From a virus (lineage: Duplodnaviria > Caudoviricetes), in the IMG/VR virus record IMGVR_UViG_3300032236_001024, positions 128,001 to 192,000 of that record: 64,000 nucleotides of DNA, one strand, 5' to 3'. Every line of letters starts with the position of its first letter. Position 1 is the stretch's first letter. This document shows, one piece after another, positions 2,539 to 13,642 of the stretch. A program made the translations under genes and the position numbers. The notes beneath the pieces are model-generated. The model was given only the letters and a program-made list of their open reading frames with translations, was not told the DNA's origin and did not search any database.

Positions 2539-4587
2539 CTATTTTACTGAAGTTCTAAAAATTCCATCCCAGTCTTTTGGTAACGGGTTCTTCTTATAAT
2601 CTTCAATTCTTTCCATCATCATATCATAGTATTCTTTCATCTCACCATTAAATGCTGGTATAAGAATTGTAAAATAATTATCTAATTGATGCCACTTCTG
2701 AGCACGATAGTAATTAATAAATTCTTTGTGGTACTTCGCATACTTCTCGTTGATATATGTTTTATCTACTATGGTATAAATGTTCACACCTTCTGACTTA
2801 CCCTTAACAGCAAGACAATCTAGTTCTAAACATAAATAATCATCCTTTACATACTCATATGTTTTGGGACCAATAACCATTTTTACATGGTATGGTTTAC
2901 TCTGTCCTTCAAGACGAGACGCCAAGTTAACAGTGTCACCCAAGCAAGTGTAATCAAAACGCTGGGCTGATCCCATATTTCCGACGACAACAGAACCAGT
3001 ATTGATACCAAGACCCATACCAAAAGGAGGAACACCATCCGCAGAAATTTCTTTGTTGAATCTGTCCAAGTCACCCAACATCTCCAATGCTGTCTTAACT
3101 GCATGTTTCGCATGTTCTGCATCATCTAACGGCGCATTCCAGAATGCCATCTGAGCATCACCAATGTATTTATCCAATGTACCTTCATTTTCAATAATCT
3201 TAGCAGTCATCGCTGTCATATAGCGATTCATTATTTGTGTAAGACCTTGTACATCACTACCATAGTGTTCAGATATAGTAGTAAACCCACGAACATCAGT
3301 AAACATAATCGAAAGTTCACGAGTCTCACCTCCTAATTTCAATAATTCTGGATTCTTTTGCAACTTCTCAACTAGTGCTGGAGATAGATAGGTTCCAAAC
3401 TGTTTTTTGATCTGTTGCTTGAGTCTAAATTCTCTAGCAAAATTGTTAAAAATTAATTGTCCAAATAGAAAAATACCTGAAACTAGCATGAAGCTTGCAT
3501 CGAATAATTGCATATACCATGCGAACATGTAATAGGATGAAGCAACTGCAAGGAGGACAAACGATGCGAACAACGGAATTGTCAACTTTACTGAAGTACG
3601 TGGAACCAGAAATAGCAATAACCCTAATAGTAATGTCAACAGGATTAGTTCTATCTCTTTGGCATCTGGCAAGCGTGTTATCGAGGTTCCATCAATGAGG
3701 TTCTGTAATGTTTGAGCTTGTATCTCATGTGCCCATTTTTCTCCATTTGGGGTGGAGATTATACCGCCAACGCCTTCAATAGTCAAACCAAGTATAACAA
3801 CTTTACCTTCAACTCTTTTATCAATTTCAGTTGCTTCTAATGAACTGAACTTATTATTCCAAGCTAACCAAATACGACCACGTTCATCAGTCTTGATTGG
3901 TGGATATTGAGGAACTCTTACTGCTTCAACTCCAAACTCATTTGTTTTAACTTGGAAACTTGGGTCTCCAGCTGCAACACGAATGGTTTCCAAAGGAATA
4001 GATGGATATAAATTCCCTGCAATATTAACAAGTAGAGGCATACGGCGAACAACGCCATCGATTTCAGGGATAGTAGCTGAAACCCCGACGCCTGAAGCAG
4101 ATTCTGAAAAGATATCCAGAGGGCGTAATCCACCAGGCCAACGATAAACAACATTATTAGGGTCAACAGAACCAATTGCAGCGAACCCACGACGAACAGC
4201 ATCTGGTTTACTATTTTGAGTAGTTGGGGTTTGAGCAAGGATAACACCATCAAGAGTTTTTGCAAGTTCACTATCTCCCCCTGCTCTATCTTTTTCTGAA
4301 AATATCATAGGTGCCACTATAACTGTGGCACCATTTTCCTTCAGTTTATTAATTGTTTTAGCAATATCTCTACGATCAAAAGGCCACTGACCAAACTTCT
4401 CTACAGACTTTTCACCAAAATTGACTAAAACTAATTCATCTGACTGTTTTTCAGGCAATGTTTTTATTAAATAATCAAATGTCTTTAATTGAAGAGTCTG
4501 AACAGGACTTGGGTTATAAATGTATAATACTATTAAAAGACATGCAGTAATTACTGCTGCCCAAGTACTGGTAAGATACTTCATCAT
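2539..4587 (-). CDS. class III adenylate cyclase with extracytoplasmic CHASE2 domain and TM helices
   Basis: N-terminal TM, CHASE2 (GQWPFDR, DGVVRRMPL), three further TMs, catalytic FTDVRGFT, DKYIGDA, GDTVNLASRLE. Confidence 0.92.
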   Translation of the reverse strand: MMKYLTSTWAAVITACLLIVLYIYNPSPVQTLQLKTFDYLIKTLPEKQSDELVLVNFGEKSVEKFGQWPFDRRDIAKTINKLKENGATVIVAPMIFSEKDRAGGDSELAKTLDGVILAQTPTTQNSKPDAVRRGFAAIGSVDPNNVVYRWPGGLRPLDIFSESASGVGVSATIPEIDGVVRRMPLLVNIAGNLYPSIPLETIRVAAGDPSFQVKTNEFGVEAVRVPQYPPIKTDERGRIWLAWNNKFSSLEATEIDKRVEGKVVILGLTIEGVGGIISTPNGEKWAHEIQAQTLQNLIDGTSITRLPDAKEIELILLTLLLGLLLFLVPRTSVKLTIPLFASFVLLAVASSYYMFAWYMQLFDASFMLVSGIFLFGQLIFNNFAREFRLKQQIKKQFGTYLSPALVEKLQKNPELLKLGGETRELSIMFTDVRGFTTISEHYGSDVQGLTQIMNRYMTAMTAKIIENEGTLDKYIGDAQMAFWNAPLDDAEHAKHAVKTALEMLGDLDRFNKEISADGVPPFGMGLGINTGSVVVGNMGSAQRFDYTCLGDTVNLASRLEGQSKPYHVKMVIGPKTYEYVKDDYLCLELDCLAVKGKSEGVNIYTIVDKTYINEKYAKYHKEFINYYRAQKWHQLDNYFTILIPAFNGEMKEYYDMMMERIEDYKKNPLPKDWDGIFRTSVK

Positions 4588-5570
4588 TTTGTTTGCCTTA
4601 TAGTTATTCTATTTGATCCACCATCACCTATTTTCGCTGTATTTATGTCGCTATTTCTTTGTAAGTCAATAGAAGCATTTCCGTTTGTACCAAAGTCAAG
4701 AAACAGATGGTTGTTAGCATCATTGTTTGTTCTGGCTGTAGTATTACCATTTTTCTTCTCTATTATAATAACAGGTGATGCTTCTTCTTTTTGATGGAAC
4801 TTGGATTGAATAGATATCTGTTCTTTTTCTATTTGTTCAGCTTCGTTTCTTTGTCTTTGCGACTCATTTCTTTCTTGTAAAGCTGCCATAATTTCTTTTG
4901 GTACAGCAATAATTAATAGATTGTTTATTTGCTTATCTGTGATACCTGTTATCCTGACTGGCTGAATAGGAGCAGCTGATGGTTGAGAAACATATGTAGC
5001 AGTATATGGTTGATCAAGAACTACTACACCAGAAAGAGACATTACTTCTATCTTTCCAGTAACACAACGTCCAACCTGATCACATGATGGAACAAGAACA
5101 ACAAGACTTCTACCAATCTCATCAACAGTCATATTAAAGTCAGTACCACGAACAGCAATAGTAGCAGTGGGCGTTTGTATATCAACTGATTGAGGATTGG
5201 CGTGTGCTATCTGACCAGAAGCATATCTTACTGTACCAAACCCAACTTTCAATCCAAGTTTGCCACCTGATTGATTAGGATTGAATACAAAATCATCTAT
5301 TAATAGTCTTGAGTTTTCTTTGATGACAACTTTTGTATCATCCTTAAACGAAATGTCCACCGTAGAATTTTTAGTCTCTACGGTGTCCATTGATTCTATA
5401 TTCGAGTCTTTAGTGCCTTCTAATAAATCTTTGTTTCTTTTGATCGAAACAACTGGTCCTTCAAGAGTTCTAATTTTACCTATTTCAGCAAAACTAGTTT
5501 GATGTGTGAACAGTAACGTTATTAGAAGTACCAGTAACCTGAAGCTTAACGGTACTATCAATAGTTCCAC
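4584..5570 (-). CDS. FecR-domain protein with signal peptide (start GTG 5570 or TTG 5561)
   Basis: signal peptide ending TSFA-EIG; FecR-like VDIQTPTATIAVRGTDF, G.VRYASG. Confidence 0.8.
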   Translation of the reverse strand: MELLIVPLSFRLLVLLITLLFTHQTSFAEIGKIRTLEGPVVSIKRNKDLLEGTKDSNIESMDTVETKNSTVDISFKDDTKVVIKENSRLLIDDFVFNPNQSGGKLGLKVGFGTVRYASGQIAHANPQSVDIQTPTATIAVRGTDFNMTVDEIGRSLVVLVPSCDQVGRCVTGKIEVMSLSGVVVLDQPYTATYVSQPSAAPIQPVRITGITDKQINNLLIIAVPKEIMAALQERNESQRQRNEAEQIEKEQISIQSKFHQKEEASPVIIIEKKNGNTTARTNNDANNHLFLDFGTNGNASIDLQRNSDINTAKIGDGGSNRITIRQTK

Positions 5571-6156
5571 CTTGGGTTGTTAATACGGTATTCGAGCTAC
5601 CAAGTATATTAATACCCAAAGTGCTACCAGCACCACCCACAGCGTTCATAGTTGAATTCACATTATTCGCATCTCCAGTGACGGAGATATTGCTCGTTGA
5701 ATTGGATTGTGTAATGTTTGTCGTTACTTGATTTGAAGAACCAGTAATAGCAAGGGTAGAACTAATGTTCTGTCCTTTTATTGTTTGACTGACTGTATTT
5801 AAATTGCCAGTTATAGTCTCAGTTATTTGAGAAGATGAACATGTAGTTAAAATATCACCACATGTTAAAGTGAATTGGTTTGAATCACCATTGATAATGG
5901 AACTATAAGTGTTTGTAGAACCAATAATACTAAAGTTATGAATATTATTACTGCCTGTTTGTTTGACAGTAACATTATTAGTATCACCATTACTTAAAGA
6001 ATAAGTTGTAGTGGAACCAATAGAATTGTTTGTTCCTACCTGTTCTAAATCAATAGTAGAAGCAGAACCAAGCTGCTTCATATATATTGAGTTTTGAGCA
6101 TAAGATGTACTCACAGTTGCCAGCATCATAAAGATTGCTAGTAATATTTTATTCAT
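5494..6156 (-). CDS. curlin-like (CsgA/CsgB-type) beta-repeat secreted protein
   Basis: signal peptide plus about 11 (Q/I/V)xGxxN repeats (QVGTNN, QTGSNN, ITGSSN, VTGDAN, VTGTSN); adjacent to csgG. Confidence 0.75.
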   Translation of the reverse strand: MNKILLAIFMMLATVSTSYAQNSIYMKQLGSASTIDLEQVGTNNSIGSTTTYSLSNGDTNNVTVKQTGSNNIHNFSIIGSTNTYSSIINGDSNQFTLTCGDILTTCSSSQITETITGNLNTVSQTIKGQNISSTLAITGSSNQVTTNITQSNSTSNISVTGDANNVNSTMNAVGGAGSTLGINILGSSNTVLTTQGGTIDSTVKLQVTGTSNNVTVHTSN

Positions 6157-6171
6157 TATTTACTCCCGTTG

Positions 6172-6966
6172 TTATTTGAATTGCCAGTATTTCTTCTTCT
6201 CACCTTCCCTGATCATTTCAACAACAGCAGCTTCAATTGCTCTCTGTGTAGCTAGATTCACACTTTCATTAATAGCATGACCAGCTTCACCTTCTATACT
6301 CAATGTACCAGCGTCAACAAATTTCATTATATTTATATTATCAGAGAAACTTAATATAGTTTTTGATGTAGTAACACTTATTAAAACTTCGCCAGTATTT
6401 ACTGATATTACTCTAAGATTTACTGTCACTAAATCCGATCTGTATTGAGTACTTGGACCAATTCCAAATACTCTTACACCAAGACCATCACTTTGAACAG
6501 TTGTATCATAACCGATTACACCACCTTCAATAATCAAACCAGAAAATAAAAGAGGCTCAAGTGGTTTTGCTTTTTCTCCTTCATAAAGATCACGCATCGA
6601 TTTAATAAGTTGACGTTCTTTGATCAAATTATCAACATCAATACGTTCAATTACACGAAACCATTTTCCATCACCAACATCTTGTAATGCTTTGACAAGA
6701 TAAGCATCAGGTGCTTGTGTAACAGCAGATGAAAACACTGCTAATTTATCGTTAGGTTTACGTTGTCCAGTTTGATCTTTAAAATTATATACACTGACAG
6801 TAACTTTACCACCCTTTGGTGGTTTTAATTGATTTTCTTCACGCTTGAAAAAATCTGGATTGACAATTTTTGGTTGTTCAACTATTTGTTCTGGTTCTGA
6901 ATATAGTATTGTTGACGCACACCCACTCAAAAACAAAAAACTGATTGCAGCAATAACTTTTTTCAT
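6172..6966 (-). CDS. csgG: curli secretion channel CsgG
   Basis: lipobox FLSGC; VYNFKDQTGQRKP, SSAVTQ, WFRVIER, LIKERQLI, EGGVIGYD. Confidence 0.92.
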   Translation of the reverse strand: MKKVIAAISFLFLSGCASTILYSEPEQIVEQPKIVNPDFFKREENQLKPPKGGKVTVSVYNFKDQTGQRKPNDKLAVFSSAVTQAPDAYLVKALQDVGDGKWFRVIERIDVDNLIKERQLIKSMRDLYEGEKAKPLEPLLFSGLIIEGGVIGYDTTVQSDGLGVRVFGIGPSTQYRSDLVTVNLRVISVNTGEVLISVTTSKTILSFSDNINIMKFVDAGTLSIEGEAGHAINESVNLATQRAIEAAVVEMIREGEKKKYWQFK

Positions 6967-6973
6967 TTTTCAC

Positions 6974-7417
6974 CTATTGAACAAAAGTAGTGCTTGGAAC
7001 AATCAATTCAGTTGTTCCTTTGGGGGTTACAGTAGTAACTGTAACTGTTCCATTAAGATTTTTCTGCCAAGAAATAGTTGTAGTACCAAAAGTAATAATA
7101 CCATGATCAACACCATTACCAAAAATAGAATTAGTAACTTGCTGAGATAATTGTTGATAAACCATTGAATTCAATGTCATAACAAACTGATTAATTGGAT
7201 CAGAAGCAGCTTTAGCCGCTTCTTCTGCTTTTGCAAGAGAAATATTATCTTTGATTTTTTGTTTGTTTGCTTGCTCCAACTGATAGATGCTGGTTACATG
7301 TGCTGTATAACCATTACCATTAAATGCTGGAGAATTAAATTGGAATTGTAAATCATCAGCTAATGAGTTTGTTGCAAACAAAGAAAGCAAAAATACAAAT
7401 AATAATCTCATAATCAA
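6974..7417 (-). CDS. csgF: curli assembly protein CsgF
   Basis: signal peptide then FQFNSPAFNGNG, typical of the CsgF N-terminus; next to csgG. Confidence 0.8.
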   Translation of the reverse strand: MIMRLLFVFLLSLFATNSLADDLQFQFNSPAFNGNGYTAHVTSIYQLEQANKQKIKDNISLAKAEEAAKAASDPINQFVMTLNSMVYQQLSQQVTNSIFGNGVDHGIITFGTTTISWQKNLNGTVTVTTVTPKGTTELIVPSTTFVQ

Positions 7418-7662
7418 ACTCCTGTTTTTTTCTTATTTATTGTTTTTCGATTTTCTCTCTTGTTTTTTTCATACCAGAACTTACTACTAGTACGGAGCTT
7501 TTCAGCACTAACTCTTACATGCTCAAGAAGAGCAGTGGCAAGTACCGATTGATGATACCGCCACTCTCTGTCTTCTTGTTCAACCATATCGGTTATTAGT
7601 TCCAGAGCCATATCTACATATGGACAAACGTGCTCAGGAACTACTGGTTTCTTTGTGTTCAT
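7414..7662 (-). CDS. hypothetical protein
   Basis: 82 aa ORF overlapping neighbours by 4 nt. Confidence 0.65.
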   Translation of the reverse strand: MNTKKPVVPEHVCPYVDMALELITDMVEQEDREWRYHQSVLATALLEHVRVSAEKLRTSSKFWYEKNKRENRKTINKKKTGV

Positions 7663-8345
7663 ATGTCAAGCGCATCCTTGAGTGATGGGAACTTCTCAAC
7701 GATCTGATTCCCAGCATCGATAGCAATCTCACGATGTTCCTTCTGAGTCTCTGGACCAGAGCGAAGTTGGCAGTAATGAATCCAAGAACGAAGCGTTCCA
7801 TTCATATACATACGAGAAACAGTCAGACCTTCTGGAAGAACAGCACGAGCCTGTTCCTTAGCAATACCTCTACGAATAGCCCAATTATATGCTTCCTGAG
7901 AGTTTGCAATTACTTCTTCTTGCTTCTTACGCCATCCATTCTGTAGTTCAGGATCATCATATTCAATAGAATTCTGACGATTCTTCTCATCCTGAATACG
8001 TGCTTCACGAGCAAAGAAACCCAAGTCCTGAGTAGGATCAGCATAACGCTGAGAGAATTCCTGAAACGAGAACGAACGGTGACGAAGAATCTGACGAGCA
8101 ATATCACGAGTCGTATTGATTTCCATCACAACACTGACCATTTCAAATGGAGACCAATGCTTATGCTTGGCAAGATAACGAAGAAGCTTGGTTGCAGTCA
8201 GTGTGTTGTTCTGATTGGATGGATTGGAAACACGAGCTACATAAGCAACAAATTCATCAACAGACATTAAAGGAGCAGCAGTTCCAATATTACCATTAAC
8301 GCTAATCGTAGGTTGAGTGATAGCAATAATTCGAGCATTATTCAT
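7659..8345 (-). CDS. thyX: flavin-dependent thymidylate synthase
   Basis: RHRSFSFQEFSQRY signature, HWSPFE, QKEHR. Confidence 0.97.
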   Translation of the reverse strand: MNNARIIAITQPTISVNGNIGTAAPLMSVDEFVAYVARVSNPSNQNNTLTATKLLRYLAKHKHWSPFEMVSVVMEINTTRDIARQILRHRSFSFQEFSQRYADPTQDLGFFAREARIQDEKNRQNSIEYDDPELQNGWRKKQEEVIANSQEAYNWAIRRGIAKEQARAVLPEGLTVSRMYMNGTLRSWIHYCQLRSGPETQKEHREIAIDAGNQIVEKFPSLKDALDI

Positions 8346-8356
8346 AATATAATTCC

Positions 8357-8590
8357 TTATTCGTTAATTTTACCATCCCAAATTTCAATGGTACTTTTAT
8401 TGACCATCTTCATTATTTGATTGGCAGTTTCTTCAACTTCCCATGATTGTGCAGGATTTCCGCCATAAACAAAAGTTTTTTCTCCTTCTATACCATCCAT
8501 ATCATATACACATGTAATGTGATCTGGATTAAAATATAAAGTAGTACCTTTAATGTCTTGACGAGCATTTGTAAGTCTGATGAATTTCAT
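8357..8590 (-). CDS. hypothetical protein
   Basis: 77 aa ORF with AGGA upstream. Confidence 0.65.
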   Translation of the reverse strand: MKFIRLTNARQDIKGTTLYFNPDHITCVYDMDGIEGEKTFVYGGNPAQSWEVEETANQIMKMVNKSTIEIWDGKINE

Positions 8591-8610
8591 AATATATCCT
8601 TATAGAAAAA

Positions 8611-8687
8611 TGGTGCGTGGAGCGGGATTCGAACCCGCCCTGTACTGATTTTAAGTCAGTTGTCTCCTGCCTCTGGACTACCCACGC
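8611..8687 (-). tRNA. tRNA-Leu(TAA), short variable loop
   Basis: cloverleaf, ACTGA-CTTAAAA-TCAGT anticodon arm, TTCGAAT T-loop, CCA. Confidence 0.88.
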
Positions 8688-8692
8688 ATTAT

Positions 8693-8769
8693 TGGCGGTT
8701 CCTGAAGGATTCGAACCCTCGACCTACGGAGTAGAAATCCGTCACTCTGTCCAGCTGAGTTAAGGAACC
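8693..8769 (-). tRNA. tRNA-Arg(TCT)
   Basis: ACGGA-TTTCTAC-TCCGT, CCA. Confidence 0.93.
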
Positions 8770-8788
8770 TTGTAAAAACTATGGATGC

Positions 8789-8817
8789 ATATTAACACCC
8801 ATAGTTTATTTTGTCAA
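8789..8817 (-). promoter_or_regulatory. sigma70-type promoter for tRNA-Arg/Leu
   Basis: TTGACA-N17-TAATAT. Confidence 0.65.
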
Positions 8818-8823
8818 GTGGTA

Positions 8824-9351
8824 TTAGAACTTGTAATTTACGCCAGCTGTGAAAGCGTTATTCTTGGTGCCAGTTTCATTCTTGAAATTAGCAAGATAAC
8901 GATAACGTGCGTCAATTTCGAAGTTCTTAGTTAGACCATAACGAACACCACCACCTATATTATAGATAGTCTGGTTCTTAACATCATTCCATGCATAACC
9001 TACACCAGCAAGAGCATAAGGTGTAATGTTAAAGAAGTTAAGAGGAAGCTGACCAATAACATTACCAGTTACAACTTCTGCCTTACCAACCTTATTCTTG
9101 TCGCTGAAATGATCATAATCAAGTTCCACACGAGCAAACTTATTTACTTCGTATCCAGCATTGCCACCAACTGTCCAGTTGTGAGCTTCATTCTTGTAAA
9201 GATCACCACCACGAATACCAACAAAGAAAGGAAGACTTGCTGAACTTGCTACAGGAGCAGGAGCAGGAGGTGCAATCTTTGATGGAAGATCAGCAGAAAG
9301 TGCTGCAGTTGAAGCAACAATAGCAGCGAGTGTAATAATAGACTTGAACAT
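8824..9351 (-). CDS. Omp25/RopB-like 8-stranded outer-membrane beta-barrel
   Basis: signal peptide, ADLPSK..PPAPAP N-terminus typical of rhizobial Omp25 family, alternating beta pattern, C-terminal NYKF. Confidence 0.8.
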   Translation of the reverse strand: MFKSIITLAAIVASTAALSADLPSKIAPPAPAPVASSASLPFFVGIRGGDLYKNEAHNWTVGGNAGYEVNKFARVELDYDHFSDKNKVGKAEVVTGNVIGQLPLNFFNITPYALAGVGYAWNDVKNQTIYNIGGGVRYGLTKNFEIDARYRYLANFKNETGTKNNAFTAGVNYKF

Positions 9352-9374
9352 TTTTTTCTCCTTGTGTTAATTTT

Positions 9375-9466
9375 TGGTAGGGGCTACAGGATTCGAACCT
9401 ATTCGAGAACGCTAATCGGGCGCTAGAAGGTTTATAAGACCTCCCTGTGTACCAACACCAACCCCC
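9375..9466 (-). tRNA. tRNA-Ile(TAT) with long variable arm and 4-nt D-loop
   Basis: GAGGT-CTTATAA-ACCTT, about 24-nt variable region, ATAGG-TTCGAAT-CCTGT, CCA. Confidence 0.75.
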
Positions 9467-9506
9467 ATCCGTTTATATTACATCATCTTGTTTGATAATG
9501 CAATCT

Positions 9507-9677
9507 CTAATTTGGAATAAGCATTTTCTTTTCTGCCTCGTTTATCTCAGCGATGCGTTTTTCCAAATACTTAATGATGATATCATTATCATCACCCTTA
9601 TATATCTTTAACCTATTGTTCAGTTCATCCACAAAAGCTGATTTCTTTAAAATTTCTACGGAATAGTTAAAATTCAT
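9507..9677 (-). CDS. small hypothetical protein (56 aa; not in ORF track)
   Basis: hand translation MNFNYSVEILKKSAFVDELNNRLKIYKG...KMLIPN; AAGGA upstream. Confidence 0.5.
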   Translation of the reverse strand: MNFNYSVEILKKSAFVDELNNRLKIYKGDDNDIIIKYLEKRIAEINEAEKKMLIPN

Positions 9678-9698
9678 GTGAATGATTCCTTTACAGTT

Positions 9699-10373
9699 TT
9701 AGTCCCAGAGACCATGGTAGTATTTAGCAAATAGACGAAGCCCATTTTTTCGACGTTCCCAAGCCTTGTCCATAGCTTCTCTGTCTACTTTGAATGTATG
9801 ATTAGGACCAGTTCCCATTTTTGTATAGCCAGTTTTTTCATCTTTTTCCCAAGTGAAATCAGATGTTCCTGTTTCAAACTGAAGTTCCCATTCATCATCA
9901 ACTTCACATTCAAATGCATGAATCATTTCATCAATAACCCATTCCCAACGATCATGAACTGTGTTATCAATATCCCATTCCTCAATCTTACCATCTGCTG
10001 CAAGTTTAACACGCTCCGGATCAGGATGCAAATGTTCAGGAACATCTTCTAGATCAACATGTGGACTACCATGTTTTTGATCTTTAAGCTTCAAAAGCAT
10101 AGGATGAACAATTAATGCAAGAGTGTGATCCATAGACCACAAATCATAATCATGTATTTTAATATTGATCTTACGTTTTGAATTGATTTTATTAATAGTA
10201 CGGTTTAGAACAACTTGCCAGTTTTCACAACACCATGTGACAATTTTATCAAGGGTTGTGTAATCTTTTTCATTAATATCCCAATAATTATCACCATACT
10301 TTTTTTCAAAGTACCAACGCTCAAATACATAAGCTGACCAATCAGTTTTATACGGTCCCATATAAACTTTCAT
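9699..10373 (-). CDS. conserved phage hypothetical protein (likely start MKVYMGPY)
   Basis: long ORF with HDYDLWSMDHTLALI..PML and W..LF.KYY..LWD pattern. Confidence 0.75.
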   Translation of the reverse strand: MKVYMGPYKTDWSAYVFERWYFEKKYGDNYWDINEKDYTTLDKIVTWCCENWQVVLNRTINKINSKRKINIKIHDYDLWSMDHTLALIVHPMLLKLKDQKHGSPHVDLEDVPEHLHPDPERVKLAADGKIEEWDIDNTVHDRWEWVIDEMIHAFECEVDDEWELQFETGTSDFTWEKDEKTGYTKMGTGPNHTFKVDREAMDKAWERRKNGLRLFAKYYHGLWD

Positions 10374-10540
10374 TAGTCTTCCCTTTCCACTTTCAAACCT
10401 TGTTTGGCAAACCAAGTGATAGCTATCAATTTTTCTTCATCTGTGTAATAAGAAGATTCCAGAACCATATTAATTCTTTTTAGGATATCTGTCAACCAAT
10501 TTATTTGTGCTTGCTTAAGGTCAAGTTCAACATTCGCCAT
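10373..10540 (-). CDS. small hypothetical protein (55 aa; not in ORF track)
   Basis: MANVELDLKQAQ...KVERED, coupled to both neighbours (TGATG and TAATG overlaps). Confidence 0.6.
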   Translation of the reverse strand: MANVELDLKQAQINWLTDILKRINMVLESSYYTDEEKLIAITWFAKQGLKVERED

Positions 10541-11298
10541 CAGAACACCATCCAGTTATTTTTATAATCCATACGATACTTTTCATGATTTACAATTCCC
10601 ATCAAAGTCTTATCAGGCGGGATCATGTTGTATCTTGCTGTCTTTTCATTTGGCTGTGTATAAGATTTCTTTTCTTCAATTGCAGCAATACAAGGACTAG
10701 GATCAACTACACGAAGAGGAATACTAAAAGCATTAGTAACACCCATCATATGATCAATAGAAACACCAAGAGGAAGCATAGGCAATCTATCAAGTGCTTC
10801 TAGACATGCATTCGCAGTCCATGGGGTCAATGCATAAGCATGTGTTCCTTCAAACTTTGTGATATCAACTTTCGTATAAGGAGCATCAATACACTCATAA
10901 TCATCACGATTATCAAACCGATAACCTAAAAAAACAAATTCATGATCTACAACGTCCACATCAAGAAAATTCTTTTTAACCAATGCATCATGTTCAAACA
11001 CTGCAACAGCACCTTTATGATCTGCAGCAATCTTCTTCCATATAGCAAGATGACCAGTTATACAACACTGTTCCTTAAACCATACATCAAAAACAGGATC
11101 ATCCTTATTTTCTTCTACAACACGATTTACACGAAATCCCCATTTCTCATGTATATGATCAACAGTTGTAGGAAGCTTCAAACCAAGAAAAGGAGTTACT
11201 GGAATGCCATGCTCTTCGCAGGACTTCTTACACTCTTCCATATACTTAATTGAATTTGGCTCATCAATGTAAAGAATATATGCATGTTCAATTTTCAT
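10540..11298 (-). CDS. GT25-like glycosyltransferase
   Basis: C..GHLAIWKKI, VFEHDA, GTHAY.L, ID..M. Confidence 0.7.
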   Translation of the reverse strand: MKIEHAYILYIDEPNSIKYMEECKKSCEEHGIPVTPFLGLKLPTTVDHIHEKWGFRVNRVVEENKDDPVFDVWFKEQCCITGHLAIWKKIAADHKGAVAVFEHDALVKKNFLDVDVVDHEFVFLGYRFDNRDDYECIDAPYTKVDITKFEGTHAYALTPWTANACLEALDRLPMLPLGVSIDHMMGVTNAFSIPLRVVDPSPCIAAIEEKKSYTQPNEKTARYNMIPPDKTLMGIVNHEKYRMDYKNNWMVF

Positions 11299-11378
11299 AT
11301 TTCACCTTATGATTTTTTAAATTTTCTTCCTTTATAATACCCTAAAGATATCCATTTTTCAAGATCATCTTTTTTTAT

Positions 11379-11771
11379 TTAGGCGTCTCTCGTAACAAAG
11401 TGAGGACGAATCTTGGTAGGTTCAAAATACTTCTGAACAACTTCAAATACTACATCATCTTCGAAGTCTTTGCAAGAGAAAACATCCATATAGAAATCAC
11501 CATTGTTTTCACAGAAGTGACCAGCAATATGTGATGTTTCAATCATCTGAACAAAACTAATACCAGCCTTATCAGGATCATGTGTTGCAAAACGACTAAT
11601 TATTGGTTCTCCATATGCAACCATGTCAATAGCAAAAACTAACTCTTTTACAAAATTATATACATTTTCTTCAGAAGTAATCAACTCATGATTACCACCA
11701 GAACAATCCAAAAGCAAGTGCCAGCCCCAAGGTTCTACAATCATTTCATTTCTCCATAAAAAAGAATACAC
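11379..11771 (-). CDS. speD: S-adenosylmethionine decarboxylase proenzyme
   Basis: GWHLLLDC, QMIETSHIAGH, DVFSCK. Confidence 0.85.
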   Translation of the reverse strand: MYSFLWRNEMIVEPWGWHLLLDCSGGNHELITSEENVYNFVKELVFAIDMVAYGEPIISRFATHDPDKAGISFVQMIETSHIAGHFCENNGDFYMDVFSCKDFEDDVVFEVVQKYFEPTKIRPHFVTRDA

Positions 11772-11789
11772 CCTATGTATTCGGTTGTG

Positions 11790-12554
11790 TTAAACAGGTC
11801 TTCTATAATCTAAAACATAATTAACGGGGAAATAAGCAACATTTACGGATTTGCTTTGGTTTCCACCAAGAACCTTCACGTATAGTTGATTACCTTCCCA
11901 TTCATAACCATTAAAGAAACCGACATGTCCTGTTTCTGAGCTTTTTCCACGCTTCAAAACAACAATGTCCCCTTCTCTAGGGGTTTTAGTTTTAATACCA
12001 TAAGAAAGAAAACTTCTAGCCATAAGACTATCTGTTCCTTCATATCCAGTACGACGAAGTACTGCATTAGCAAAAGCAGCACACCATGGCGTCCTTACAG
12101 GATCAACAGGTGTGTCATGTGTAGTCGAAGCTTTGAGATAAGTTTTAATTTCTTCTCTATTCTTTCGAGTATTTAGCCCCTCAAGTCTAGAAGCTTCATT
12201 TATAATTTTAGTTTTGGAATTGTTAAATCCTTGATTTGAAATATCAGCAACTTTATTGGTCTGACGAGGTTCAAATTTAGTAGGAACAAATCCAATATTT
12301 TCACAAGCAAAAAATGCAGAAGCTGAAATATCAGAACCAAGATTATAATTATTATAACACTGTGTTTTCAAATCTGCAATAGTTGGTGTTTTATCTTTTA
12401 CCTTATTTTTTACTTGTTGTTTTTTTGTCACTTTTTTCTTTTCCTTCACAGGAATTACAGAAGAAAGTGGTTCAGCATATACATTATTTGGAATCATTTC
12501 TCCAATAGCAAATACACCTAATAATGCAAATACTGAAGTATTTATTTTTTTCAT
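11790..12554 (-). CDS. TIGR02594-like CHAP/NlpC peptidoglycan hydrolase with N-terminal signal/anchor
   Basis: TPWCAAFAN, GHVGFF, VLGGNQS. Confidence 0.8.
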   Translation of the reverse strand: MKKINTSVFALLGVFAIGEMIPNNVYAEPLSSVIPVKEKKKVTKKQQVKNKVKDKTPTIADLKTQCYNNYNLGSDISASAFFACENIGFVPTKFEPRQTNKVADISNQGFNNSKTKIINEASRLEGLNTRKNREEIKTYLKASTTHDTPVDPVRTPWCAAFANAVLRRTGYEGTDSLMARSFLSYGIKTKTPREGDIVVLKRGKSSETGHVGFFNGYEWEGNQLYVKVLGGNQSKSVNVAYFPVNYVLDYRRPV

Positions 12555-12727
12555 TTTAATCTCCTCTCATATGCAGCTATAAATGACAACTTGCTGCAGT
12601 ATGAACACATAGGGTGTATGTGTATTTATTGTTTTTTAATACTTGTTATTCTTCCTTTATAAAATCCATCCCTCATTTATATAATAGTCTTATTGATATT
12701 GCTATTTATATAAATGAGGTGTTTATG

Positions 12728-12798
12728 CTGAGAGACAGGGACTCGAACCCCGATAAGCAGATTCAAAGTCTGCGGTCCTACCATTAGACGATCTCTCA
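12728..12798 (-). tRNA. tRNA-Gln(TTG), CCA not encoded
   Basis: GCAGA-CTTTGAA-TCTGC; acceptor TGAGAGA/TCTCTCA. Confidence 0.88.
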
Positions 12799-12801
12799 AT
12801 T

Positions 12802-12839
12802 ATTGACATAGTTTAATATGATTTGTTAACTATGTCAAT
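12802..12839 (-). promoter_or_regulatory. 12-bp perfect inverted repeat containing TTGACA-N17-TAAACT (tRNA-Gln promoter and/or hairpin after nuclease gene)
   Basis: ATTGACATAGTT-N14-AACTATGTCAAT. Confidence 0.45.
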
Positions 12840-12844
12840 TAATA

Positions 12845-13642
12845 TTATGACTTACAGATTCTTTTCTTATCGTCTGCGATAGTCTTTAAATCAGTTACAG
12901 GAACTGGATTCTTAATATTCTTGGCATCTGGAACAGGGAATGACAAACTTGACATTTTTTCGATATCGTTAACTGTTACTTGATACGTAGCAAAATCAGA
13001 TACCAATCCATCCTTATGAGGGAAATAGAAAGCATAAGATTTCTTAGTTACATTATTAATAATAATTTTAAATAGAGCATCTGGAACAACTACTTTGTTT
13101 GCTCCAATAGTTTTTATTCCACCAATATTACCAGCAATAATAGTATGAGCCTGCTTTGAAGAATACACCCATGCTCTACCAGCTGATTCTAAGTTCTTCC
13201 ATACACCACGATTAACAGAAGGAAGTTGTGGTGACATATTAGACATATAAAATGATTCACGTTCTACAGCCAAATCCCAAGACTGATCAGCATCATTAGC
13301 AAGATGCCCCTGATCATAACCAGAACCAGCATAATCAGTAGGCTTAGGCGAAGCAGCACCAAGTGACTGATCTGCAGTGAATGCATTGGTACGTGGAATA
13401 CATCCAATAGCATGATCAGGTGTTAGTGTCCAAGAAACCCAATCAGGTGTCTTAGTCTGTGGATTAAATGCAAGCAAATAACCTGTACGACAAACAAGTG
13501 TATAACCAGTCTTAATTGCAGGCTGACCATAAGGAATATGAACAGCGCACTGAGCAATAGGAAGAGGTGGTGCTTGGTCTGCAGCGTATACACCAAATGA
13601 TGAAGCCAAGAACAAGAAAGAAGTAATTAATAATTTATTCAT
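12845..13642 (-). CDS. secreted DNA/RNA non-specific endonuclease (NucA/Serratia type)
   Basis: signal peptide; YDQGHLA, SFYMSNMSPQ...NRGVWKNLE. Confidence 0.9.
   Translation of the reverse strand: MNKLLITSFLFLASSFGVYAADQAPPLPIAQCAVHIPYGQPAIKTGYTLVCRTGYLLAFNPQTKTPDWVSWTLTPDHAIGCIPRTNAFTADQSLGAASPKPTDYAGSGYDQGHLANDADQSWDLAVERESFYMSNMSPQLPSVNRGVWKNLESAGRAWVYSSKQAHTIIAGNIGGIKTIGANKVVVPDALFKIIINNVTKKSYAFYFPHKDGLVSDFATYQVTVNDIEKMSSLSFPVPDAKNIKNPVPVTDLKTIADDKKRICKS

Follow-up and report, generated by a model that had tools for sequence, protein, structure and literature searches.

A phage gene cluster that joins curli-type secretion genes to a FecR-fold protein and a CHASE2 receptor adenylate cyclase

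We analyzed a 64,000-nucleotide stretch of viral DNA (positions 128,001 to 192,000 of the IMG/VR record IMGVR_UViG_3300032236_001024; hereafter the window) and found on its minus strand a block of five genes which, read from 7417 to 2539, encoded CsgF, CsgG, a curlin-like repeat protein, a FecR-fold protein, and an adenylate cyclase with a CHASE2 sensor domain. This cluster is a member of the published pelagiphage-type module that combines a type VIII secretion system (T8SS) with a sensor, and we lean towards reading it as two functional halves that move as one block. One half would be a minimal curli (type VIII) secretion unit without CsgE, CsgC, and CsgD, and the other a periplasm-to-cytoplasm sensing pair of bacterial type. 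The module is not new. A first annotation made from the letters alone (the sequence-only reading) had taken a unit of curli, FecR, and cyclase genes to be undescribed; this was incorrect, as the genes are annotated in phages HTVC008M and Melnitz and the unit was described in 2022 by Wittmers et al. (PMC9599517). To the earlier work we added a quantified linkage of the genes, the recognition of the CHASE2 receptor, the assignment of FecR to a CHASE2-associated type, structural support for the curlin, the homology of FecR to an adhesin anchor, and chromosomal copies of the cluster in bacteria.

Composition of the five-gene cluster

The source record, that of a large marine phage, was a complete virus of 202,141 bp with direct terminal repeats. 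Because its gp44-like clamp loader was 57-61% identical to the counterparts in Stenotrophomonas phage DLP6, Melnitz, and HTVC008M, the source was assigned by sequence to the T4-like myophages, which agreed with the phage origin proposed by the sequence-only reading. All five open reading frames (ORFs) listed in that reading were present on the minus strand with every detail confirmed, and the identities given to them were supported by Pfam and PHROG matches, a lipobox, signal peptides, and catalytic residues. PHROG families were assigned to four of the five proteins, the repeat protein having none. The genes were also physically coupled as described, with junctions of +7, +15, -77, and -4 nt in order. 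Where the curlin and FecR genes overlapped, the opening 77 nt of FecR, which encode its entire signal peptide, lay in a different frame from the 3' end of the curlin gene, and a comparable open-frame overlap of the two genes was found in related loci. The FecR and cyclase genes were co-directional and overlapped by 4 nt.

The csgF gene (6974-7417, minus strand) encoded a protein of 147 aa whose Pfam CsgF match (1.2e-14) exceeded the family cut-off, and which also matched phrog_35372 (1.9e-24). Its signal peptide was followed by a mature N-terminus with the motif F-Q-F-x-x-P-x-F-x-G-N; in the E. coli protein this motif inserts as a plug in the barrel of CsgG. The csgG gene (6172-6966, minus strand) encoded a protein of 264 aa with the lipobox L-S-G-C at residues 13-16; aligned along its whole length with CsgG of E. 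coli, it showed 38% identity (E 3e-58). The Pfam CsgG match (8.5e-49) was over the cut-off, and the NCBIfam CsgG match (1.4e-52) was under the equivalog cut-off. The locus contained two of the parts by which a type VIII (curli) secretion system is recognized, CsgG as the outer-membrane lipoprotein channel and CsgF as the accessory protein whose N-terminus binds CsgG. In the constriction loop of CsgG the Phe was retained, the E. coli Tyr was replaced by Asn, and the E. coli Asn was replaced by Val. CsgE gave no match anywhere in the 202-kb phage genome, and neither CsgC nor CsgD was recognized near the cluster. CsgE is also missing from alphaproteobacterial curli operons (PMC9599517).

The third gene (5494-6156, minus strand) encoded a secreted protein of 220 aa, rich in Ser, Thr, Asn, and Gly, with a signal peptide and a predicted beta-solenoid. 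Ten G-x-x-N and two G-x-x-S turns were counted, spaced mostly 11 or 22 residues apart. In a family alignment of 18 sequences the G, N, and Q positions were conserved, with invariant Q, G, and N columns, and the consensus I-Y-I-x-Q-x-G-x-x-x-T-I-x-I-x-Q-x-G-x-x-N resembled a curlin repeat. The AlphaFold model was confident (predicted local distance difference test, pLDDT, 88.7) and all-beta, with some 19 short strands, strand and turn recurring every 11 residues, and its top structural match was a solved CsgA. When the protein was scanned by itself against Pfam and PHROG, no match was obtained. The family aligned to E. coli CsgA by hhalign with an E value of 1.1e-4 (probability 56%), the NCBIfam CsgA match was sub-threshold (1.5e-4), and the Pfam curlin repeat reached 26.9 bits when two matches in frame were summed. 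Because these four lines (structure, hhalign, NCBIfam, and summed Pfam repeats) were each weak but concordant, the protein is best read as a CsgA/B-like subunit, of putative amyloid nature. The cluster resembles the curli systems of E. coli and Alphaproteobacteria in its CsgG with a lipobox, in its CsgF plug motif, and in a putative subunit predicted to be a Q/G/N-rich strand-turn-strand beta-solenoid. It differs from E. coli curli in that this subunit has about double the length of CsgA from E. coli and scores only marginally with curlin profiles, and in the changed constriction-loop residues.

The fourth gene (4584-5570, minus strand) encoded a secreted protein of 328 aa that matched Pfam FecR (1.1e-10) and phrog_37870 (2.2e-68). 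A cleavable-looking N-terminal signal peptide ending in S-F-A led straight into the FecR domain (about residues 29-205), followed by a long helix (225-258) and a small beta module of low confidence; the C-terminal end carried an invariant I-x-I-x-Q in the family alignment. The AlphaFold2 model had a pLDDT of 75 overall and about 60 in the C-terminal module. This module was considered as a curlin repeat and rejected, given an hhalign probability of 4% (E 0.01) against the curlin family, a curlin hidden Markov model that missed the FecR ORFs, and the low model confidence. Foldseek matched the FecR model to the periplasmic domain of PupR (6ovk_R, E 3e-4) and also to the anti-sigma factor BDI_1681. 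By sequence, the single solved protein matched by the FecR-family profile was 5ix9_A (E 0.0078, profile positions 30-99), which is the N-terminal cell-surface anchoring domain of a Marinomonas ice-binding RTX adhesin, and Foldseek aligned the FecR model with 5ix9 over 62 columns at 32% identity and a root-mean-square deviation of 1.0 Å. The N-terminal domain of such an RTX adhesin remains periplasmic and holds the adhesin in its outer-membrane pore. The likeness spans the ~70 residues at the start of the phage FecR domain, and both are periplasmic domains of systems that show, or in the phage would show, a fibre through an outer-membrane pore. The phage protein differs from the giant adhesin in being small and stand-alone, without an RTX region or a type I secretion system, and in lying nearer to CHASE2-linked FecRs in the tree described below.

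The sequence-only reading had compared this protein to FecR proteins that relay signals across the envelope. The analogy holds loosely: the FecR fold was found, but the N-terminal cytoplasmic anti-sigma domain and the membrane anchor were missing, and no transducer or extracytoplasmic function (ECF) sigma factor partner was seen. Neither an STN domain nor a TonB-dependent receptor was found in the phage, nor a credible ECF sigma factor, the only Sigma70_r2 match being sub-threshold and ~57 kb from the cluster. Because the anti-sigma part, the STN domain, the TonB-dependent receptor, and a credible ECF sigma factor were all missing, the phage FecR protein is not an iron anti-sigma factor, nor is it a part of Fec-type iron signalling. 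Sigma or transducer partners encoded by the host could still exist.

The fifth gene (2539-4587, minus strand) encoded a protein of 682 aa that matched phrog_35576 over its full length (1.7e-219). Pfam CHASE2 (1.5e-38) occupied residues 17-324 and the cyclase domain (Guanylate_cyc, 5.1e-21) residues 423-605. The catalytic set was complete, with the metal-binding Asp residues D431 and D477, the substrate pair K473 and T547, N554, and R558. Both Asp, the Lys, and the Arg were invariant among 14 homologues, two of which had Ser in place of N554; at position 547 the homologues had T, S, or D. The closest sequence match in the PDB was P. aeruginosa CyaB (3r5g, 4.1e-32), and the phage protein shares with CyaB and other class IIIb cyclases the Lys/Thr pair, the two metal Asp, the Asn, and the Arg. 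It differs from CyaB, whose sensor is its own membrane module, in having CHASE2 as the sensor and in an extra conserved C-terminal tail of ~70 aa, for which no family or fold was recognized. Hydrophobic segments at 3-29 and 308-380 flanked CHASE2, and by analogy with other CHASE2 sensors the block at 308-380 would form about three transmembrane helices. The predicted topology is that of the usual CHASE2 receptor, in which a transmembrane helix, a periplasmic CHASE2 domain, a transmembrane cluster, and a cytoplasmic output follow one another, and the protein is classified from its residues and domains as a CHASE2 receptor and class IIIb adenylate cyclase, predicted to synthesize cyclic AMP (cAMP). 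Neither a cyclic nucleotide monophosphate-binding (cNMP_binding) domain nor a second cyclase was found in the phage, and a phage-encoded reader of cAMP was rejected for want of such a domain. Any cAMP would therefore act on host receptors or on an unrecognized phage receptor.

Conservation in viral contigs and earlier descriptions

The association of csgF and csgG with the FecR and cyclase genes extended to other viruses; the refuting condition named in the sequence-only reading, a lack of the FecR and cyclase genes next to csgF and csgG in related phages, did not hold. CsgG similarity was used to gather 80 viral contigs, whose CsgG identities ranged between 80% and about 41%. Linkage was counted in contigs with at least 1.5 kb downstream of csgG for FecR, and at least 7 kb downstream for the cyclase. 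CsgF was present in 80 of the 80 viral loci. We found that FecR followed csgG in every contig with enough flank (63/63), and that the cyclase was likewise always present (32/32), being downstream on the same strand in 31 of the 32. The cyclase was located elsewhere or on the opposite strand in three viral loci (L006, L008, and L009). A secreted curlin-like subunit was at the same position in nearly all viral loci. The distance between FecR and the cyclase was bimodal, the genes abutting in nine contigs, as they do in the window, and being otherwise 0.3-3.5 kb apart, and the gap was occupied by a second repeat protein in HTVC008M, Melnitz, and several contigs. The phage analyzed here is a minimal five-gene variant without the second curlin gene.

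In three of the viral contigs an ORF of ~115 aa was located directly upstream of csgF (L009:9097-9468, L010:9112-9483, and L011:8962-9480). It matched no Pfam family and was homologous to cyclase residues ~564-677 (E 4e-5 to 3e-12), a region consisting of the last strands of the catalytic domain and the conserved C-terminal tail. By this homology the ORF is a stand-alone paralogue of the cyclase tail, and it may be what Wittmers et al. recorded as short 'histidine kinases' ahead of csgF in podophage modules (PMC9599517).

HTVC008M (KC465899) and four Melnitz genomes contained the same genes in the same order, annotated as CsgF, CsgG, curlin-associated repeat protein, and adenylate/guanylate cyclase, with the FecR gene labelled 'FecR domain protein' in Melnitz and 'hypothetical protein' in HTVC008M. 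A curli operon in pelagimyophages was reported by Zaragoza-Solas et al. in 2020, who proposed 'sibling capture' (PMC7029224), and Buchholz et al. in 2022 suggested that lysis is timed in the manner of a pinholin or secretin (PMC9004378); the cyclase and FecR go unmentioned in both papers. For pelagiphages of the myo- and podo- types alike, Wittmers et al. described the arrangement csgF-csgG-csgA/B-FecR-(csgA/B)-adenylate cyclase, with the second csgA/B frequent, and found the module genes to be ubiquitous in ocean viromes and expressed in metatranscriptomes. They inferred an alphaproteobacterial origin and transfer between phage families as a unit, stated that FecR, kinase, and cyclase are outside bacterial T8SS operons, and discussed aggregation, superinfection protection, and import as roles (PMC9599517). 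That paper never uses the term CHASE2 and treats FecR as a regulator of iron. The cluster in the window agrees with the pelagiphage module in genes, order, PHROG families, and T4-like backbone, its cyclase being 41-44% and its CsgG about 48% identical to those of cultured pelagiphage-type phages. It differs in that this phage, together with L003-L005, L011, and L014-L020, has no second curlin-repeat gene and has FecR abutting the cyclase, in its shorter FecR linker, and in its genome of 202 kb versus 141-147 kb. No public RNA run contained this stretch, the only match being in the probable source metagenome.

Bacterial relatives and neighbouring genes

The alignment of phage FecRs was used to scan bacterial genomes, one per species, and the best 80 loci were kept. 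Six of these belonged to whole clusters, 18 were adjacent to CHASE2, 14 were N-terminal domains in ORFs of >1000 aa, and 42 were in other settings. Among the 74 loci outside whole clusters, the 18 next to a CHASE2 gene included several with a cyclase output, and neither CsgG nor CsgF was encoded less than 10 kb from any of the 74. In a maximum-likelihood tree of FecR, the viral and cluster sequences formed one clade (support 100/100), whose sister group comprised 27 sequences, 15 of them CHASE2-adjacent, with support of 95 by ultrafast bootstrap (UFBoot) and 65 by SH-aLRT. The domains from giant proteins formed a separate clade, apart from the viral one. The phylogeny thus places the phage FecR with the CHASE2-associated periplasmic type. 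From the CHASE2 side, 20 genes from 20 alphaproteobacterial genomes were inspected, and 19 of the 20 were CHASE2 cyclases of the phage architecture. A FecR-like gene was found within 4 kb of 4 of the 20, and in a random 9-kb window such a gene would be expected ~1% of the time by a rough estimate. The pairing of FecR with CHASE2 is recurrent and well above this rate, but clearly not obligatory.

The S. meliloti gene smc02177 presumably adjoins the CHASE2 cyclase gene cyaD1, judging from gene numbering. The smc02177 product has a FecR domain and belongs to the regulon governed by CyaD1/D2/K, which are CHASE2 cyclases (PMC5498481). A Burkholderia operon, also found in P. aeruginosa, pairs a LysM/FecR protein with a histidine kinase that has a CHASE2 domain (PMC5192318). 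Such bacterial pairs of FecR (COG4254) and CHASE2 resemble the phage pair in that a secreted FecR-fold gene stands immediately upstream of a sensor with CHASE2 between transmembrane segments, with adenylate cyclase as a possible output. They differ in having no CsgG or CsgF nearby in our sample, and the Burkholderia version adds LysM and a kinase output. Giant ORFs of >1000 aa, some of >3000 aa, that start with a FecR-like domain were observed in Rhodospirillales, Magnetococcales, and related metagenome-assembled genomes (MAGs), at L090, L095, L102, L104, L111-L114, L117, L122, L126, L142, L143, and L160. This start is consistent with an N-terminal retention module of giant adhesins.

Among the bacterial records with the whole cluster, L084 and L089, and partly L085, are judged to be mis-binned phage contigs because their clusters were flanked by homologues of the replication genes of this phage. 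Two Caulobacteraceae MAGs (L086 and L087) carried the full order csgF-csgG-curlin-curlin-FecR-CHASE2 cyclase at ~7000-13100, preceded by a calcineurin-like phosphoesterase gene and flanked by genes for methylmalonyl-CoA mutase, acyl-CoA dehydrogenase, amidohydrolase, TetR, and DsbA. Bacterial chromosomes can therefore carry a T8SS operon with FecR and cyclase, and the claim of PMC9599517 that these genes are outside such operons needs to be qualified. The possibility that these clusters represent the ancestral bacterial source was rejected: their FecRs were nested within the viral clade (support 96/89), their GC content was 47-54% compared with 54-59% in the flanks, and among 400 genomes sampled within the order of the Caulobacteraceae no further one had a FecR of the phage type. 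Acquisition from phage is the simpler and more likely reading of these sequences.

In the window, the co-directional and tightly coupled run of genes extended beyond the five-gene block, with thyX and an 82-aa ORF upstream and an HNH endonuclease, a family 2 glycosyltransferase (GT2), and an LpxH-like gene downstream. Together with an outer-membrane beta-barrel gene, these flanking genes were almost never near the cluster in the 82 loci scanned; the conserved unit extends from csgF through the cyclase. The GT2 gene and the weakly LpxH-like metallophosphoesterase gene (543-1969) were translationally coupled and located downstream of the cluster, behind the HNH/NUMOD3 homing endonuclease. The phosphoesterase matched its NCBIfam family at 7.8e-15, under the cut-off. 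The pair recurred beside the cluster only in the closest relative, L004, with the phosphoesterase alone also in L021. The candidacy of the phosphoesterase (543-1271) as a cAMP phosphodiesterase of the module was rejected given the weak LpxH likeness and the lack of conservation with the cluster. The beta-barrel gene (8824-9351), ~1.4 kb upstream of the cluster, encoded a protein of 175 aa with a signal peptide (Pfam OMP_b-brl 9.9e-17), and was rejected as an NsrA-like co-sensor, being present at only 1 of the 82 loci.

Proposed function and alternatives

If the cluster works as a secretion unit joined to a sensor, CsgG would be the outer-membrane channel, CsgF would cap it and anchor or nucleate the fibre, and the CsgA/B-like beta-solenoid subunit would be exported via CsgG and polymerize on the infected cell. 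The FecR-fold protein, exported by Sec, would assist the periplasmic CHASE2 domain, either as an accessory protein or by presenting a ligand to it, and the inner-membrane class IIIb cyclase would convert a periplasmic cue into cytoplasmic cAMP. Fibre formation, cAMP production, contact between FecR and CHASE2, and a cue tied to curli secretion or to the envelope are what we infer for this arrangement. The sequence-only reading had likewise proposed an amyloid fibre and a trans-envelope cAMP switch that might sense fibre assembly.

Several observations weigh against this proposal. The synteny among phages may partly stem from the acquisition of a single block. The support for the sister relation between the viral and the CHASE2-linked FecRs was only moderate, and only 4 of the 20 alphaproteobacterial CHASE2 genes had a FecR-like gene close by. 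A complex prediction for FecR residues 29-222 and CHASE2 residues 28-312, run on alignments that we had built, gave a score of 0.00, which is not evidence either way. In a minority subgroup of the phage cyclases, seen in the viral contigs L011 and L068, the transition-state Asn was replaced by Ser and the Thr/Ser of the substrate pair by Asp, with both metal Asp, the Lys, and the Arg kept, and this lineage may have a different activity or specificity. Melnitz-infected cells showed no clumping (PMC9004378). Podophage versions of the module retain FecR, often without the cyclase (PMC9599517), and because of this FecR may serve the secretion unit rather than the cyclase.

An alternative that we consider unlikely yet deserving of attention places FecR in the secretion half. 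As a plug or adaptor seated on CsgG in the periplasm, it would replace CsgE and/or anchor the fibre via its C-terminal beta module in the manner of an RTX adhesin, and the cyclase would be an add-on that reads out the plug. A plug or adaptor was considered because of the retaining role of the adhesin domain, the absence of CsgE from the phage, and the constancy of FecR in podophages without the cyclase, where FecR is more constant than the cyclase (PMC9599517). The profile and structural matches to the 5ix9 anchoring domain, the 14 bacterial matches that were N-terminal domains of giant ORFs, and the invariant I-x-I-x-Q at the FecR C-terminus also favour it. In the tree, however, the phage FecRs grouped with the CHASE2-linked clade and not with that of the giant adhesins, and the C-terminal module was not significantly curlin-like and was modelled with low confidence. 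Curli secretion is thought to begin at the N-terminus of the subunit, and an N-terminal plug would be at odds with this.

A rather improbable alternative is that CsgG and CsgF form a gated pore instead of a fibre exporter, acting as a pinholin- or secretin-like lysis timer or as a channel that brings in cofactors or iron, with FecR and the cyclase as regulators. Such roles were proposed in PMC9004378 and PMC7029224 (import also by Wittmers et al. 2022), and the infections by Melnitz without clumping, the altered CsgG constriction, and the lack of a CsgE gate would fit them. A pure pore, however, requires neither a curlin-like subunit nor CsgF, the subunit is conserved in position in nearly all loci with CsgA as its best structural match, and the idea of lysis timing leaned on neighbours such as thyX that were not conserved with the cluster.

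It is very unlikely that the two halves are functionally independent and linked only by block acquisition, the cyclase flooding the host with cAMP or answering an outside cue unrelated to curli. In favour of this, CHASE2 cyclases are common as stand-alone genes in Alphaproteobacteria (19 of 20 with this architecture, 16 of 20 without a nearby FecR), the cyclase was displaced or inverted in L006, L008, and L009, and it is frequently missing from podophage versions. Against it, the cyclase was retained in all 32 loci with enough flank despite deep divergence and variable flanks, the module moved between phage families as a unit (PMC9599517), and the cluster was intact in two bacterial chromosomes.

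A phage that gives a curli-less planktonic host an amyloid export machine and a receptor cyclase is unusual; the presumed hosts of the cultured relatives are without curli genes (PMC9004378, PMC9599517), and published surveys place such phages across the surface ocean. If a secretion unit and a sensor do work together in this cluster, infected cells of very abundant marine bacteria would alter both their surface and their second-messenger levels, which could affect aggregation, superinfection, and carbon export. The strict linkage makes the cluster a compact, self-contained system for learning what CHASE2 domains and their FecR-fold neighbours sense. We know of no ligand for any CHASE2 domain. 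In a version that we hold to be quite doubtful, FecR would be a plug or adaptor docked under CsgG, a substitute for CsgE and kin to RTX retention domains, that reports the state of secretion or of the fibre to CHASE2, so that the five genes would form a trans-envelope sensor turning a pore event into cAMP. If this were true, a CHASE2 domain would for the first time have a ligand or partner assigned to it.

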